From NCBI GenBank assembly GCA_963666285.1, contig OY762711.1: a stretch of DNA of 64,000 bases; one strand, written 5' to 3'. The translations under genes were made by a program, and so were the position numbers. Below the pieces are notes generated by a model that worked only from the letters and a program-made list of their open reading frames with translations, ran no database searches and was not told the DNA's origin. This DNA is from Sedimentisphaerales bacterium. GTDB taxonomy: Bacteria; Planctomycetota; Phycisphaerae; Sedimentisphaerales; SM23-30. The stretch's first letter is position 1. Each line of letters opens with the position of its first letter. Of this stretch, positions 6,226 to 18,624 are shown piece after piece.

Positions 6226-8775
6226 TTGTTAAATACTAGAAGGAATACCCCCGTGTTACAAATTACGTTAGAAGCTGATAATAGTATAGTTGATGAAGTT
6301 GATTTATTCCGTTTCCGAATAAATAATGAACTTGAATCTAAAAACAAATCAGCGCTTGGACAGTATTTTACACCTGCACCAATATGTCGATTTATGGCTT
6401 CTTTATTTGATAGTATCCCCTCAAAATCTTATCTTCTAGACCCTGGCTGTGGCACCGGTGGGTTAACTTCGGCTTTTATTGAAGAAGCAATAAACAGAAA
6501 TGAAATAGTAGACATAGAAGCTGATCTATACGACATTGAACCAAAAGTTAAACCATACATTACAGAAGTCAAAAATCTTTGTAGCAAATCTGCAAAAATC
6601 AACTTTATTGAAGACGATTTCATACTAAATTTTGATACAATACTAAATGAATCTTTTTTCAATTCAATTAGTGTTGAAAAATACAGCCATGCAATACTAA
6701 ATCCTCCTTATAAGAAAATTGCGACAAAAAGTAACCATAGAATCTGCTTAAGAAAAGCCGGAGTTGAAATAGTCAACATATATGCCGGTTTTGTTGCCCT
6801 CAGCATACTGCAACTTCGCAAAGGTGGTGAGCTAGTAGCCATTATACCTCGATCTTTTTGTAATGGTTTGTACTATGAGCCTTTTAGAAAATTTATTCTT
6901 AATAGAACTGCAATAAAACACATACACATATTTGAAAGCAGAACAGACGCCTTTTCTGATGAAGATGTTCTTCAGGAAAATATTATTGTTCACTTAGTCA
7001 AAGGCGAAAAACAAAAAGATGTAACAATCACTTCGAGTCCAACATCTGACTTCCATATTGATCCGATTACTAACACATATTCCGCAACAGATATGACTAT
7101 ACGTTCTGTTCCTATTAGCTCAATAGTAAACCAACATGACAGAAATTTATTCATCCATATTGCGGCTAACAACAGAGATCAGGCTATCATAGATAAACTT
7201 AGTATCTTTACTTCAACCTTAGACGACCTAAATATAGAAGTATCAACAGGTCCTGTTGTTGATTTTCGCCTTAAAAATGATCTAAGAGAAAACTATGAAG
7301 ATGGCTTAGCTCCTTTGCTTTACCCTATTCACTTTAAAAACGGATTTAAATGGCCGCAAAAAACAAAAAAACCTAACGCAATCAATATTTCAAAAAAGTC
7401 CAGAAAATGGCTCTGGGATAATACTGGATATTTTGTAATCACAAAACGTTTCAGTTCAAAAGAAGAAAATAGGAGAATAGTTGCGTCAATTTACGATGGT
7501 ACCTTACCAGGAAGGTTTATTGGTTTTGAAAATAAATTAAACGTCTTTCATCACAAAAAAAAAGCTATTGAAAAAGAGCTAGCTTTAGGATTAATGATTT
7601 TTCTTAATTGCACATTGGTAGATAAATACTATCGTCTTTTCGGTGGTCATACACAAGTTAATGCAACAGACCTCAGAGCAATTAAATATCCTGACTTTGA
7701 AACATTGATTAGGCTTGGAAAAAAGGTAGATAGTCCATCATTATCACAAAAAGAAATTGACGACTTAATTGAAAAGGAAATTATCAAAATGACCGGGAAT
7801 GATAATAATAACCCTATTGAGATGCAAAATAAAATAGACCAAGCCTTACAGATACTCATTGACGTTGGAATGCCTCGCGCTCAGCAAAATGAAAGGTCTG
7901 CACTCACTTTATTAGCATTACTAAACCTGACACCACAAAAGCAATGGAGTGATGCTGAATCTCCAATGATAGGCGTAACACCGATAATGGATTGGTGCCT
8001 TAATGAATATGGTAAAGAATACGCGCCAAATACAAGAGAGACATTTCGCAGACAAACTCTTCACCAATTTGTTGATGGTGGAGTTTGTCTTTATAATCCA
8101 GATAAACCAGATAGACCTGTTAACAGCCCAAAGGCTTGTTATCAAATTACTCCTGAATTGCTCAAAATAATCAAACATTACGGCACCACCAATTGGACCC
8201 CATATTTAAATCGCTGGCTTAAAAAACGGAAAACACTGGTTCAAAAATATGCCAAAAGCCGCGATATGGCAATGATCCCTTTAACTTTAGATACTGGAGA
8301 GGAAATATTATTAAGTCCAGGAGATCATAGTCAATTAATCTGCGATATCGTTAATGAATTTGGGCAGCGTTTTGTTCCTGGCGCAGAAGTTATATACTTA
8401 GGCGATACTGGAGCTAAAGAAGAATTTTTCAATAAGGAAAAATTAGAAGAACTTGGAGTAACCGTTAATCGAAAGGGTAAATTGCCAGATGTTGTATTGT
8501 ATTGGCAAAACAAAGACTGGCTGCTACTTATTGAATCTGTAACCAGTCATGGACCAGTAGATAGTAAAAGACATTCTGAACTATCAGAATTGTTCAAAAA
8601 TGCAAAACCAGGATTGGTTTATGTAACAGCATTCCCAAATCGCTCCATAATGGCAAAATACCTTACTGATATTTCATGGGAAACCGAAGTCTGGACAGCA
8701 GATACCCCAACCCATTTGATACATTTTAACGGTGACAGGTTTCTTGGACCACATAATAATAATTCACAAACTTGA
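6226..8775 (+). CDS. Fused N6-adenine methyltransferase and BsuBI/PstI-family restriction endonuclease (start possibly GTG 6253)
   Basis: GQYFTP, LDPGCGTG and NPPY in the N-terminal part; YAPNTRETFRRQTLHQF, GKLPDVV and IESVTSHGP in the C-terminal part; one continuous frame. Confidence 0.88.
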   Translation: MLNTRRNTPVLQITLEADNSIVDEVDLFRFRINNELESKNKSALGQYFTPAPICRFMASLFDSIPSKSYLLDPGCGTGGLTSAFIEEAINRNEIVDIEADLYDIEPKVKPYITEVKNLCSKSAKINFIEDDFILNFDTILNESFFNSISVEKYSHAILNPPYKKIATKSNHRICLRKAGVEIVNIYAGFVALSILQLRKGGELVAIIPRSFCNGLYYEPFRKFILNRTAIKHIHIFESRTDAFSDEDVLQENIIVHLVKGEKQKDVTITSSPTSDFHIDPITNTYSATDMTIRSVPISSIVNQHDRNLFIHIAANNRDQAIIDKLSIFTSTLDDLNIEVSTGPVVDFRLKNDLRENYEDGLAPLLYPIHFKNGFKWPQKTKKPNAINISKKSRKWLWDNTGYFVITKRFSSKEENRRIVASIYDGTLPGRFIGFENKLNVFHHKKKAIEKELALGLMIFLNCTLVDKYYRLFGGHTQVNATDLRAIKYPDFETLIRLGKKVDSPSLSQKEIDDLIEKEIIKMTGNDNNNPIEMQNKIDQALQILIDVGMPRAQQNERSALTLLALLNLTPQKQWSDAESPMIGVTPIMDWCLNEYGKEYAPNTRETFRRQTLHQFVDGGVCLYNPDKPDRPVNSPKACYQITPELLKIIKHYGTTNWTPYLNRWLKKRKTLVQKYAKSRDMAMIPLTLDTGEEILLSPGDHSQLICDIVNEFGQRFVPGAEVIYLGDTGAKEEFFNKEKLEELGVTVNRKGKLPDVVLYWQNKDWLLLIESVTSHGPVDSKRHSELSELFKNAKPGLVYVTAFPNRSIMAKYLTDISWETEVWTADTPTHLIHFNGDRFLGPHNNNSQT

Positions 8776-13744: not shown

Positions 13745-14077
13745 AGTTTCTGCTCGATAACATAAACTTAAATCAATATAAATTACCTTTTCGCACTTTC
13801 CACCTTGGAATGTGCACGCCCAAAAGGCAGCGTGAAGCATTAAAAATAAAATATAACGTGTGACAGCTTATCCTGGAATCCCGTACTTAACCTGGCAAAG
13901 GATATCAGGGGACAGCCAAACACATAAATCTCTCACTTTTATACTTCGCATCTTTTCAAGGCAATAAAACCTTCCGTTTACCGGTGCGCCTTGAAATAGT
14001 GTGCCGCACAAAATTGCAAAAAAAATATGAGCTGATTCTGAAACAGCCTGTAGACAAAATTGAAAGGATATATAATT

Positions 14078-15967
14078 ATGAATGCTAAAATATATATACA
14101 GACGTTTATTTTGATAGTATCTCTGGCAGGAAGTCAATTATACGGCCAGTTAAATGATTCTGTCCCGCCGATTCCTGGCCAGGAAGAGCCTGAAATATTA
14201 AACCAGGGACCTATCCATGAAGCGTTCGCCCAACCGGTCGAACTGGTAACCGAGTCAGGCATTGTCTCACCGCAAGAGCCGCCCGACGATATCATAGAAG
14301 ATCCTGCCGAGGAAAAACCCGAAAGCTCCAGATATGTCTGGATACCCGGATACTGGGCCTGGGACTCCGAGCGAAGCGATTACGTCTGGATCAGCGGCTG
14401 CTGGAGAATTACCCCGGTAGGCATGTCATGGGTACCGGGCTACTGGGACGAAATTTCTACCGGCTGGCAATGGGTACCGGGATTCTGGATATCCACTACC
14501 CAGGCCGAACAGATCAAATACCTGCCCGAACCACCGGCAATTGCCGAAACTGAACCACCGGTAACTGTCGTTGAGACTGAGAAAATCTGGGTGCCGCCCT
14601 GCTATTACTGGCACCAAAATAATTATATCCTCCGAGCCGGATATTGGCTCGACCCGCGGGATAATTGGGTATGGGTTCCATCCCATTACTCCTGGACACC
14701 GCATGGATATGTTTTTGTCTCTGGATACTGGGATTACGCTTTGGAAACACGAGGCATCTTGTATGCACCTGTTTACTTCCCAAGACGCTTCCATAGACCT
14801 CATAGATACACTTACTCATTGGGTGTTGTCGTGAATATCAGAAATCTTGAATTCAGCCTGTTCAGCCACCCGCGTTACTGCCATTATTATTTCGGTGATT
14901 ACTACAGCGACTTTTATGTCAGTATCGGAATTTTCCCATGGTTTGAATTCAAGAAACGGCACGGTTGGTACGATCCGATCTACGAACATAAACGCTGTCG
15001 ACACCGTCGAAAAGATCCGCATTGGGGCGATCATATCCGACATGAATATGAACTCCGGCGAACAGATGCTAAACGACGTCCGCCACGAACCTATCGCGAA
15101 ATTAAATCTCGACACTTACAATCGCCTAAAGATCATCGTAACGATTTTCGATTCGTTGAACCGGTTAAGTCATATACCAAAAAGAAGGATACACCATTTA
15201 AGTCCTACAGAATGGACCACAAGGAACGTCTGAAAATCGTTGGCCATGCAGACAGGGTAAATAAATCCCGTCAGCAGCGAAGAACGCTGGAGTCACATCG
15301 GTCCGCTCCGACATTCGAAAGGTCATCTAATAAATCCCATCCATCGGAAAGAAAAATGTCTGAAAAGAGTTCACGCACTACAAGTCCTGCAAGGCGAGAC
15401 CGAACTACACCTCCGACCAGGATTCAACCGGCACCACAAAGAAAAACACAAACCGACTCACCTGCCAGAAATCGAACGACTCCGGCAACCAAAACCAGAA
15501 CTGACTCGCCAACCAGAACCCAACCAACGCCACAACGAAAAACGCAGCCTGACTCGCCAACCGAGGCCAGGCCTGCACCATCATCAAAATCTAAGCCTGA
15601 CAATTCGTCCAAGACACGGTCCAACTCTCCGACCAGATTCCGGCCGGCTCCTCCAACAAACTCCCGGTCAGTTGCACCTGCCAGAGTCCAGCCTAACTCA
15701 TCAACCAAGTCTCAACCTTCATCACCAGCCAAAGTTAAACAGCCGACCAAACAATCATCAGAAAAACAAAAAAGCAATAAGAATATTTCTCCGAGACAGC
15801 AATATTATTCAAAATCATCTAATAAAGAAAAAAGTTCCAGCAGCAGTTCCCAGAACAAAACTACTTCAAAGCCAGAAAGAAACTCGCAACCACAACAGCG
15901 TAAAGATTCTGACAAAAAGGATAAAAAACAAAAAAGCGGAAGAGGTGTAGGCCGCTGGCATAGATAA
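14078..15967 (+). CDS. Secreted WXXGXW/YXWGXW-repeat protein with basic Pro/Ser/Thr-rich tail
   Basis: Signal peptide; GPIHEAFA; WIPGYW, WISGCW, WVPGYW and WVPGFW repeats. Confidence 0.85.
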   Translation: MNAKIYIQTFILIVSLAGSQLYGQLNDSVPPIPGQEEPEILNQGPIHEAFAQPVELVTESGIVSPQEPPDDIIEDPAEEKPESSRYVWIPGYWAWDSERSDYVWISGCWRITPVGMSWVPGYWDEISTGWQWVPGFWISTTQAEQIKYLPEPPAIAETEPPVTVVETEKIWVPPCYYWHQNNYILRAGYWLDPRDNWVWVPSHYSWTPHGYVFVSGYWDYALETRGILYAPVYFPRRFHRPHRYTYSLGVVVNIRNLEFSLFSHPRYCHYYFGDYYSDFYVSIGIFPWFEFKKRHGWYDPIYEHKRCRHRRKDPHWGDHIRHEYELRRTDAKRRPPRTYREIKSRHLQSPKDHRNDFRFVEPVKSYTKKKDTPFKSYRMDHKERLKIVGHADRVNKSRQQRRTLESHRSAPTFERSSNKSHPSERKMSEKSSRTTSPARRDRTTPPTRIQPAPQRKTQTDSPARNRTTPATKTRTDSPTRTQPTPQRKTQPDSPTEARPAPSSKSKPDNSSKTRSNSPTRFRPAPPTNSRSVAPARVQPNSSTKSQPSSPAKVKQPTKQSSEKQKSNKNISPRQQYYSKSSNKEKSSSSSSQNKTTSKPERNSQPQQRKDSDKKDKKQKSGRGVGRWHR

Positions 15968-16215
15968 TCTACATAATAACCAATCAGTTTAACTTAATTT
16001 GTTTTAATATATTTTATGTTAAATTTCGCACTGCAAACCTTTAAACATTATTCATACTCCAACCGACTCAAACTGTCTACCGGGCAGTTTGAGTTATTAT
16101 TTTGTAGCATTATTTACATAAATAAGGTACGATATCGCCTAATGAATAATTTAATCGGGATATGCAGTTGGTCTATCCCATTCGACATCAATCTACTAAT
16201 TGAAAGGCAGGTAAC

Positions 16216-17469
16216 ATGAAACATAAATACTGCGGTTTACTCAAAATTGCTTCAGTCTTGTTGCTCTTCTTTACAATATGCCTGACCGGCTGCGAAAAGA
16301 AAACAGATGAAACTTCCAGTCCGCCGGATAATGAATCTTCTGCCAATAATACCGCTGCAGAAAATGACGTCAAACAGCTTGACCCTGAAAAAGCATTTGT
16401 TTCTGCCCCGGATGTCTCTATTGCTGCTCTAAAGGAAATCAAAGCTGACCAACTCGAAATGAAAGATCCTCCTTCTTTTGTCAGACGTATGAAACGTAAT
16501 AATAAAGAATCACTTAAAATGGGTACTATCAGTTTGGGTGAACATCAATATATGGTCCTGCTCGGCGATAACACCAGCTATGAATTCCATATTCAGGATG
16601 TTAATAAAGACCAGGCCCCTTACTGGTGGGGATCATGGAGCCTTCACTCCAGGCACCTGCTGAAAGGCAAGTATTATGAATTCAAACTGATTGAAAACGG
16701 CACCAAAATTGCCGGCAGACCATATACCGGCGAGTTTGGTATATTTAAGCTTGGCAAAGGCGAAAGAAACATCGAAAAAATGGAGATGAACGGTTCAATC
16801 GAACAAACCGGCGATGTTGGAGCACCTGTCGGCGATCTATCTAAACTCATGTGGCCTGACCCTGTTGCGGAATGCTCTGTACCGGTCGGCGACTATACCG
16901 CTAACCTTATGAGCGTCGTATATGACGATCTGAAAATCGATATTTCTCATAACTACTATACCAATGTCAAGGGACAATCTGCCACGAAAAACGTCGTTTA
17001 CGGCATGCAGGTACGAAAGGATAAACCCTACATACTTGATTTCTCAAATGAACCAGCAATTATCTTCGAATCGCCCAAAAATGACGGAGATACATATTCG
17101 CTTGGCAATGAAATAAAGTTTTCCGCGGTTTTGATTGATCCAAAACTCGATATCATGATTAGAGGTTTGGACGACACCTCCCAAAAAGTAGAAAAAGAAT
17201 ACAAGGATAATGACGGCAATGTAATCCACACCGCTAAAATATCCAAGTCACTTGACCCCAAGGTAGTCGTCACCCGTTCTAACGGCGAGGTTGTAGGAGA
17301 GGGCGTTATGCCCTTTGGCTGAGGCGGCACATGCGGGTATGCGTGGCGCATACCGGAAGACCTGAAACTTAACGGCGACAGCGAAGAATTTACAGTGACC
17401 GTTACCTACGAAACTAAGATACTGTACGGTAACGTTTCTGCTCAGCGAAAAATTAAAATTACCAAATAG
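16216..17469 (+). CDS. Lipoprotein, candidate selenoprotein (in-frame UGA at 17320-17322; 417 aa if read through)
   Basis: LTGC lipobox; frame continues MPFG-U-GGTCGYAWRIPEDLKL...KIKITK to TAG 17469, then a terminator. Confidence 0.75.
17323..17356 (+). promoter_or_regulatory. Candidate bacterial SECIS element
   Basis: GGTATGCG-TGG-CGCATACC perfect 8-bp stem beginning 13 nt after the UGA, with a G-containing apical loop. Confidence 0.65.
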
Positions 17470-17512: not shown

Positions 17513-17543
17513 GCCGCCTGAGATTATCTCAGGCGGTTTTTTT
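17513..17543 (+). terminator. Intrinsic terminator
   Basis: CCGCCTGAG/CTCAGGCGG stem followed by TTTTTTT. Confidence 0.85.
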
Positions 17544-17814
17544 ATTACTATTGCCAACTTTCGCTATTTTCAGAGGTTGCCTTAATTGTAAGCAACGCTC
17601 AAATGGAACCAGATGAAGGTACCATACAAATCCTGCGGCTAATATCACAAATGATGCTATATATAGAATTAAATTTACATAAAAATACAAAATATCACCG
17701 ACAAAACCGCCCCTTATACTGAAAAGCTCTTGTAACCTTATCAATATTAATTAAAATAAAACCAGGTATAATCTTTTATGAAAACAACCGACACACCCGG
17801 ATAAAAGGAATATA

Positions 17815-18624
17815 ATGAATATCAATAAAACAAAACTTATCTATTTCTCGCCAACTGAAACAACTAAAAAGGTCATGGAAGGTGTCGCCGCCGGAATAAA
17901 TGCCGACAGCACCGAACATCTTAACCTGACCTCACCACAAAATACCGAAAAAATCTTATCAACTTCTCCAGACGAACTCGTAATCATCGGCGCTCCTGTT
18001 TATGCCGGACGACTGCCGAACGATGCCGTCAAACGATTCAGACAGATCAAAGCTGACAACACACCCGCCGTACTGATCGTTGTTTACGGCAACAGAGAAT
18101 TCGAAGATGCTCTGCTGGAACTAAAAGACCTCGCAATTGAATTAGGATTCTGCCCCATAGCTGCCGGTGCGTTTATCGGCGAACATTCTTTTGCCACAAA
18201 CGACATCCCAATCGCCAATGGTCGACCCGATTCTACTGACCTCCAAAAGGCAAAAGAATTTGGAACGAAGATCAACGAAATTGTCACTTCCATAAATGAA
18301 ACTGACAAAAATATCGATTTGCCAATACCCGGCAATTATCCACATCGAAACGGGGCACAGCCGATGGGATTCGCACCGGCCGTCAATAAAGATACCTGTA
18401 CCAAATGCGGCCTGTGTGTCACGGTATGCCCGACTGCTGCGATATCGCTCAACGATTCCATCCAAACTGCAGTAGATTTGTGCATTCAATGCTGTGCCTG
18501 CATTAAAAAATGTCCGGTCGATGCATTGTCTTGGCAGGACGATAAAATCACAGGCATAGCCCATCGTTTGAATTCTAATTGCCAGACACGCAAAGAACCC
18601 CAATATTTCGGCATAAACAAATAA
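17815..18624 (+). CDS. Flavodoxin-like plus 2x[4Fe-4S] ferredoxin protein (EFR1-like)
   Basis: YFSPTETTKK, PVYAGR, VVYGNR; CTKCGLCVTVCP and CIQCCACIKKCP. Confidence 0.88.
   Translation: MNINKTKLIYFSPTETTKKVMEGVAAGINADSTEHLNLTSPQNTEKILSTSPDELVIIGAPVYAGRLPNDAVKRFRQIKADNTPAVLIVVYGNREFEDALLELKDLAIELGFCPIAAGAFIGEHSFATNDIPIANGRPDSTDLQKAKEFGTKINEIVTSINETDKNIDLPIPGNYPHRNGAQPMGFAPAVNKDTCTKCGLCVTVCPTAAISLNDSIQTAVDLCIQCCACIKKCPVDALSWQDDKITGIAHRLNSNCQTRKEPQYFGINK

Follow-up and report, generated by a model that had tools for sequence, protein, structure and literature searches.

The 64,000-nt stretch of Sedimentisphaerales bacterium DNA analysed here (GenBank assembly GCA_963666285.1, contig OY762711.1; hereafter the window) carries on its plus strand, at 16216-17469, a gene that almost certainly encodes a lipid-anchored extracytoplasmic selenoprotein of 417 amino acids (aa), as judged from its sequence and that of its homologues. 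A preliminary description of the same DNA had proposed a selenoprotein gene at this place, and the proposal is borne out with two refinements: the gene is not a lone one, since it belongs to a set of seven paralogous copies of an immunoglobulin (Ig)-like module that contains selenocysteine (Sec), and the pairing of this Sec with the Cys four residues on is a putative one. The open reading frame (ORF) begins at ATG 16216 and under translation table 11 stops at TGA 17320-17322, giving a protein of 368 aa, and beyond this codon the frame reopens for 48 codons to TAG 17467-17469, with a terminator-like hairpin (17513-17537) afterwards, just as had been described. The full ORF contains a single in-frame TGA, as codon 369. 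The selenoprotein case rests on the conservation of this codon in homologues and on the covariation of the hairpin that follows it, not on the single sequence.

The genome contains selA, selB, two selD genes (the second with an in-frame TGA of its own, in C-A-G-U) and the tRNA-Sec gene selC, all above cut-off, so that the lack of Sec machinery, which the preliminary description had named as grounds for rejection, is not found. Because TGA ends 448 of the 2571 long frames in the genome, the organism does not use a UGA-reassigned code. In the established mechanism, SelB and Sec-tRNA insert Sec at UGA after being recruited by a downstream hairpin. In the gene studied here, the ribosome would reach UGA369, SelB and Sec-tRNA recruited by the hairpin would insert Sec, and translation would go on to the TAG; the signal peptide and lipobox, read by the well-established lipobox rule, suggest that the product is exported and lipid-anchored. 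The TGA is unchanged in contigs of sequencing runs X1 and X3 (one study), of which X1 may be the source of this assembly, and in a 151-nt piece of run X5 (another study). No RNA run is listed among the sequencing runs covering the gene.

The stem that had been noted 13 nt after the UGA is present, with the strands GGTATGCG (17336-17343) and CGCATACC (17347-17354) closing a TGG loop (17344-17346). The bacterial selenocysteine insertion sequence (SECIS) model set out in the available text of PMC13188914 has a loop of 3-9 nt with a G in the first two loop positions, a stem of 4-16 bp, 16-37 nt from UGA to loop and a minimum free energy of at most -7.5 kcal/mol; the hairpin lies within all of these limits (3-nt UGG loop, 8 bp, 21 nt from UGA to loop, -10.4 to -13.1 kcal/mol). 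The local 31-nt hairpin is more stable than shuffled sequences (z -2.69, 4/200), and a SECIS-type filter applied to the whole genome passes 12 of 1738 candidate TGAs, five of them copies of the module motif. Pairing in the stem amounts to 92% over 39 genome-derived sequences, and 4 of the pairs show 19 double-sided changes between them, a level reached by 0 of 500 shuffles in a test that, as the tool warns, is inflated by related sequences; controls slid along the alignment are 21-55% paired. The closing pair is often an A-C mismatch and is paired in 26 of the 39. Codon choice follows the stem as well: among 173 TGA copies, TCG and TCA are the only Ser codons used, and without exception the first base of the Ser, Thr or Ala codon pairs with the last base of the Arg codon two places further on, the combinations across the loop being TC with CGA or CGG, AC with CGT, and GC with CGC or CGT. 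These comparisons indicate that the hairpin is under selection and covaries at synonymous sites too.

Homologues end where this gene is conventionally called to end, while their DNA does not. A protein search gave 319 matches, and among the 120 listed, 118 have as their last residue the Gly before the UGA (117 with M-P-F-G, one of which is the truncated call of the Sec gene itself, and one with M-S-F-G); of the other two, one continues through the site with a Ser and the other has the site deleted. The expectation that standard annotation truncates the protein is confirmed by these counts, which point to a large selenoprotein family that is systematically shortened in databases. The named homologues are hypothetical proteins of Anaerohalosphaera, Sedimentisphaerales, Phycisphaerae or Planctomycetota. 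At the DNA level, all 65 matches to the C-terminal 159 aa (from 34 of 201 genomes of the class) contain one TGA, and the fetched loci continue in frame past it with G-G-T-C-x-Y-S-W-R-V-P. A DNA pattern left free at the Sec codon (NNN) matched at least 122 metagenome stretches, and TGA occupies the free codon in 81 of 81 matches within the 80 metagenome loci listed; with both flanks prescribed by the pattern, the Cys among them, the matches represent no more than the family's conserved core. A related-locus search of genome contigs yielded only one locus, and one locus has TGG at the Sec site. Homologues that truly end at this position, or that bear Trp or another non-Cys residue there, had been put forward as signs of a nonsense mutation; the homologous DNA instead runs in frame past a conserved TGA, and the search across the UGA for either a conserved UGA or a Cys finds both.

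The Cys forms come from a module-profile search (104 positions, built from an alignment of the region) of 1.84 billion representative sequences, which gave 652 matches, the best 150 of which were inspected. Thirty-eight giant repeat proteins (37 of at least 1000 aa, plus P0222) were dropped before residues were counted, because they match only short parts of the profile, mostly the Y-x-W-x-x-P strand. Of the best 150, 27 stop at the Gly preceding the site, 13 bear C-x-x-x-C, 2 have Cys at the Sec site only, and many carry some other residue there, whether or not the second Cys is kept; a few show Gly, Trp, Arg, Leu or Ser, of which Gly or Trp could reflect the code chosen by a gene caller. Four of the C-x-x-x-C homologues, one from a Chloroflexota record, are fused to a redoxin domain with C-x-C-x-x-C. 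The second residue of the motif is retained in nearly all Sec forms, with the +4 Cys present in 201 of 208 TGA copies; Cys373 is invariant in the 34 rows of the alignment, rows that were picked by a motif including this Cys.

The module is defined by the motif [FY]-G-U-G-G-T-C-x-Y-S-W-R-x-P, and all seven copies in this genome have both the TGA and the hairpin. Their hosts differ widely. Among them are a 189-aa protein, lipoproteins (484-528 aa), a multi-pass membrane protein of 377 aa and a protein of 964 aa whose sequence continues past the Sec for 576 residues and has a LamG-like domain in that part. In the class sample, the profile gives 140 matches in 45 of 201 genomes, with up to 11 per genome; 134 of them contain one TGA, 5 have no stop and 1 has a TAA that is a plain protein end. 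At the level of the phylum, 32 of 251 genomes have matches, of which 66 of 80 contain the TGA and the remainder no stop. The frame extends more than 200 codons beyond the UGA in 25 of 143 closed-frame copies, and the part after it comprises, in some paralogues, a membrane region of about 280 residues. The distribution indicates, from sequence, that the Sec domain is a portable module on many exported Planctomycetota proteins of differing architecture. Tandem arrays were also observed, with six Sec-module genes in L174 (G154:C17:5001-25000) and four in L173 (G001:C22), some copies in these arrays being without the +4 Cys. In a tree of 138 module rows, Cys and other forms are scattered among Sec forms, which fits repeated loss of Sec; the tree is too weak for the direction of change, having been made by a quick method from 99 columns, with 73 of 135 branches open and only 64 TGA copies included.

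Genomes with the module also tend to have the genes for Sec synthesis. The gene selA occurs in 41 of 45 module genomes versus 35 of 156 others, in a sample in which related genomes are not independent, and a module copy lies within 15 kb of selA in 24 of the 41. Within the sampled order, selA and the module are both present in 8 genomes and both absent in 19, which include the two closest relatives. Sec machinery is found in 42 of 43 genomes with a TGA copy, the position of the TGA at the Sec site being confirmed only in the fetched loci. Among module genomes in which selA was not found, G053 has only a non-Sec form, G063 has selB, selC and selD adjoining the module gene, and G161 has selD beside two module copies, plus selC. 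Genes that recur beside the module are selB, a fused SelD (9 genomes), a NapH-like ferredoxin (6), a NitT/TauT-type ATP-binding cassette (ABC) transporter (4-5) and a methyltransferase with HGD-D genes (3-4), although these counts are not a random sample because the regions were chosen for holding selA and the module.

The structure model links the reading frame beyond the UGA to a fold. AlphaFold2, with Cys in place of Sec, modelled residues 56-417 with a mean predicted local distance difference test score of 95.6 and a predicted template modelling score of 0.90. In this model, the residues after the UGA form the last three strands of the C-terminal Ig-like sandwich, so the 48 read-through residues complete the predicted sandwich and the fold is incomplete without them. 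The module matches 8u01_A (Z 10.7, root-mean-square deviation 3.4, 97 aligned) and 4u48_A, the Salmonella alpha-2-macroglobulin (Z 10.1, root-mean-square deviation 2.5, 99 aligned); these Ig fold matches are generic and say nothing on function. The N-terminal 222 residues have no clear fold match (best Z 4.7) and no Foldseek match at E 0.001, the middle domain has weak structural matches (Z about 4), and a sequence search of the PDB with the module profile gave nothing better than E 0.23. In the predicted secondary structure, U369 lies in a two-residue gap between short strands, with C373 four residues on, and the gap reads as a glycine-rich hairpin turn in the model.

By analogy with the thiol:disulfide oxidoreductase domain nDsbD, the most likely reading, though with odds only a little better than even, is that the Sec serves as an extracytoplasmic selenol/thiol redox site. 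This reading draws on the 13 C-x-x-x-C homologues, the 4 redoxin fusions, the Ig-fold precedent of nDsbD and the recurring NapH-like gene. The selenol in the glycine-rich turn would attack a disulfide or an oxidant outside the cytoplasm, Cys373 (+4) would usually resolve the selenol adduct, and a thioredoxin-fold or membrane-ferredoxin partner would re-reduce the site, candidate electron donors being the redoxin domain and the NapH-like membrane ferredoxin of the sel island; the variable N-terminal domains might choose the partner or substrate. More speculative, and rather doubtful as it stands, is the joint proposal that the Ig-fold Sec module, shuffled onto a variety of surface and membrane proteins and multiplied to 7-11 copies per genome, is a general extracytoplasmic redox hub, equivalent in selenium chemistry to nDsbD, and the main reason why these Phycisphaerae keep the Sec machinery, the module and sel genes moving as one island with the fused SelD and an importer.

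Several observations weigh against the selenoprotein assignment or against its redox role. The 48 open codons are by themselves weak evidence, as 34 of the 448 long TGA-ended frames of the genome also stay open that far, and the 51-nt segment from the UGA folds no better than its shuffles (z -0.40, 60/200). The Sec gene lies about 0.9 Mb from the sel island, with unrelated genes on both sides, and in genome G064, where a TGA copy lies on a contig of 1.5 kb, selA, selB, selC and selD were not found. With respect to redox chemistry, U369 and C373 may lie too far apart for a Se-S bond if the modelled hairpin is regular; the +4 Cys is missing in 7 of 208 copies that keep the TGA, a low estimate because most loci were gathered with the Cys in the pattern; and many of the best 150 of the 652 profile matches keep the domain after loss of both residues, which implies that the fold is of use even in their absence. 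Fusions to a redoxin domain are seen only in Cys forms, and the thioredoxin-like domains encoded beside Sec copies of the sel islands lack CxxC, with x-x-Q-R-P-S instead.

The main alternative to the redox site, though an unlikely one, is a selenoprotein in which U-x-x-x-C binds a soft metal (Cu(I), Hg, Ag, Fe-S or similar) for capture or delivery at the surface. A Gly-rich loop with two chalcogen ligands would suit such a site, the spacing being as fit for chelation as for a Se-S bond, and Sco proteins bind copper through a C-x-x-x-C pair. The copper-binding protein CopC is among the generic fold matches of the module (Z 8.4), but this match is no better than those of many unrelated Ig folds; moreover, a conserved third ligand (His, Met) was not found near the motif, and no metal-transport or resistance gene recurs among the clustered neighbours save the NitT/TauT-type transporter.

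A role in selenium handling or covalent attachment, with the protein acting as a surface store or carrier or forming lasting Se-S links to partners, is improbable. The number of paralogues per genome (7 here, up to 11) and the copies that keep the TGA without the Cys would be in keeping with it, as would the clustering with selA, selB, selD, selC and an ABC transporter related, below cut-off, to SaoX/SaoP/SaoA, the ExtI-like porin near one paralogue, and the fact that 0 module genomes have a formate dehydrogenase above the TIGR01553 cut-off. However, one Sec per protein of 190-1000 residues makes a poor store, the clustering is equally explained by co-inheritance of a client gene with its machinery, and the fusion of Cys homologues to redoxins points to catalysis.

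Less probable again, and at best a remote possibility, is that the UGA is mainly a selenium-dependent switch, the full-length protein being made only if there is Sec-tRNA and the chemistry of Sec being incidental. Termination at the UGA would remove three strands of the domain and, in some paralogues, the membrane part of about 280 residues, and the end of one paralogue lies 25 bp ahead of selA, in the same orientation; yet the arrangement is not a conserved one (in G159 and G018 the module gene and selA are on opposite strands), and at least 13 homologues have Cys in place of Sec while retaining the second Cys. That paralogue is the 189-aa module-only protein (G000:C1:4441249-4441818, minus strand), which may possibly couple selA translation to Sec supply. 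Finally, a true stop, a nonsense mutation, or Trp or Gly under another code is scarcely credible and was rejected: the database proteins do end here, one homologue has Ser and one a deletion at the site, a few show Gly, Trp, Arg, Leu or Ser and one locus has TGG, but the downstream frame is conserved across the phylum, the hairpin covaries, TGA copies go together with sel genes, a product ending here would lack part of its fold, and TGA is an ordinary stop in this genome.

With the UGA read as Sec, the gene resembles known bacterial selenoproteins with an intragenic SECIS, of which the formate dehydrogenases of Escherichia coli are the classic case, in its in-frame UGA, its 3' stem-loop within the model's constraints and the presence of selA, selB, selC and selD. 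The recoding mechanism is known; what is probably new is the domain and its modularity. By motif and model names, none of the 119 families in Table 1 of PMC13188914, in its available text, has the motif or a model matching the module. In NCBIfam 20.0 and Pfam, no family covers the protein or any of the 34 module sequences, sub-threshold matches aside, in agreement with the remark in the preliminary description that no classical family could be assigned. The motif was likewise not found in a literature motif search or in the available part of the deep-Sep supplements (PMC12013277), and a literature search by taxon gave nothing relevant. The family is uncatalogued in NCBIfam, Pfam and the available text of PMC13188914, the BSepDB sequences (PMC13326102) and Haft and Tolstoy 2025 lying outside the comparison.

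Amongst described families, DUF1573 (PF07610) and OS_HP2 (NF041425) are alike in having Sec in an exported Ig-like domain with Gly before it, but their motif, in the available text of PMC13188914 and PMC12013277, is U-G-C, in contrast to the U-G-G-T-C of the module. Membership was rejected, as PF07610 matches 0 of 34 modules and NF041425 1 of 34 (E 0.012) and 0 module loci in 5 genomes; both names probably denote one fold family, given that the strongest NF041425 match in the genome falls on a DUF1573 domain. The nDsbD domain, by the account of PMC2631958 (available text) the one Ig-fold thiol:disulfide oxidoreductase known in 2009, is also an extracytoplasmic Ig-like domain with a thiol-type pair, and a thioredoxin-fold domain is found in the chains of some Cys homologues. 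However, Cys103 and Cys109 of nDsbD are six apart (PMC2631958, available text) as against four in the module, the membrane and thioredoxin domains of DsbD are not in the Sec protein, and a redoxin domain occurs only in 4 Cys homologues; because spacing and domain context differ, nDsbD is an analogy only and the module is not a DsbD member. The PDB search gave no sequence match to nDsbD, which is also not among the fold matches listed. The closest named fold is MG2 (PF01835) of alpha-2-macroglobulins, whose Z of 10.1 is within 1 of unrelated Ig domains; PF01835 has weak matches in 9 of 34 modules (E 0.001-0.1), but the thioester and the other macroglobulin domains are absent from the module proteins. 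Hypothetical protein DG (NF049953, GUxG) and the HesB-like selenoproteins (G-U-G-G) share the local G-U-G-G and differ in the residues after it and in giving no Ig-like domain match. Membership in DG was rejected (NF049953 matches 0 of 7 module loci, with four weak matches elsewhere, none above cut-off), as was a thioredoxin-fold UxxC/CxxU family, since the module is all-beta in a confident model, has no thioredoxin Pfam match and differs in spacing.

The presence of Sec in an extracytoplasmic Ig-like domain departs from the usual thioredoxin fold, and the U-x-x-x-C spacing is uncommon. The motif and hairpin together offer a means of correcting hundreds of gene calls and supply concrete targets for a selenol role on the bacterial surface. 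Formate dehydrogenase TIGR01553, the only Sec family surveyed in this way, is above cut-off in 3 of 201 genomes and in none with the module; taken with the co-occurrence of selA and the module, this suggests that the family may explain why these bacteria use selenium. The positions of the features of the gene and of related loci are collected in Table 1.

Table 1. Features of the Sec gene in the window and of associated loci elsewhere (window positions unless a locus or contig is named)
Feature	Position	Strand	Basis or remark
Hairpin, 14 pairs, T-rich tail	16065..16095	+	between upstream gene and Sec gene
Ribosome-binding site, purine-rich	16202..16211	+	sequence
Full Sec gene, 417 aa if UGA is selenocysteine	16216..17469	+	translation
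Lipoprotein signal peptide, lipobox L-T-G-C26	16216..16293	+	sequence and lipobox rule
Polar low-complexity linker, residues 27-55	16294..16380	+	sequence; excluded from structure models
N-terminal mostly-beta domain, residues 56-172	16381..16731	+	structure model
Middle beta-sandwich domain, residues 173-277	16732..17046	+	structure model
C-terminal Ig-like beta-sandwich (Sec module), residues ~277-417	17044..17466	+	structure model
In-frame TGA, predicted Sec369	17320..17322	+	sequence, homologues
Cys373 of U-G-G-T-C motif	17332..17334	+	sequence, alignment
SECIS hairpin, 8-bp stem, UGG loop	17336..17354	+	folding, SECIS model
True stop codon TAG	17467..17469	+	sequence
Intrinsic-terminator-like hairpin and T run	17513..17547	+	folding; hairpin part 17513-17537, -20.1 kcal/mol
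Methyltransferase/HGD-D loci	L170:334-4678, L171:12547-16756, L176:9570-14648, L179
Thioredoxin-like neighbours	L161:7862-9184, L169:10328-12763, L172:6365-8872
Second candidate selenoprotein	G000:C1:4495780-4497018 (L187/L189)	+	TGA at C1:4496149

Around the Sec gene, the upstream hairpin is probably the terminator of the preceding gene (14060-15967, plus strand), whose WXXGXW-repeat product has a low-complexity tail of some length. A promoter scan gave 5 sites against 5.8 expected. The downstream gene (17815-18624, plus strand) encodes a protein with flavodoxin and 4Fe-4S domains. A family-library scan found no link of either flanking gene to the selenoprotein.

The sel islands have further features. 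The fused SelD (G000:C1:4445146-4446777, L160:15146-16774, and 8 other genomes) stands beside module genes and has an N-terminal C-V-C-D-P-x-x-P-C-P-C extension and a C-terminal CMD/AhpD domain. Between selA and selD lies the NitT/TauT-type ABC transporter (G000:C1:4442183-4445149, plus strand), which is nearest to SaoX/SaoP/SaoA, below cut-offs, and is a candidate selenium importer. By inspection, a mobile-looking insert (G000:C1:4447015-4455639) splits the sel island, with an integrase-like ORF after selC, a resolvase-like ORF and an RHS-like ORF; a homologue of its first ORF lies close to the sel genes in G110. An ExtI-related porin gene (G000:C1:495204-496580, minus strand; E 2e-10, below cut-off) is located about 2 kb away from a module paralogue, ExtI belonging to a selenite/tellurite reduction operon. 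The sel islands of 3-4 genomes contain genes for a methyltransferase, HGD-D (2-hydroxyacyl-CoA dehydratase-like) proteins and a BcrAD/BadFG activator, and some proteins adjoining Sec-module genes combine carboxypeptidase-regulatory-like repeats with a C-terminal thioredoxin-like domain.

A second candidate selenoprotein family is represented by an exported protein of 413 aa that contains Y-M-U-N-C-L, the TGA being followed after 15 nt by a hairpin. In genome G159 there is a homologue of 40% identity, which holds one TGA, and a further copy with Y-T-U-Q-C-L and a hairpin; the family was found in 2 of the 201 class genomes. Elsewhere in the window, an 849-aa ORF (6226-8775, plus strand) resembles, by inspection, a DNA methyltransferase with an NPPY motif fused to a restriction endonuclease.

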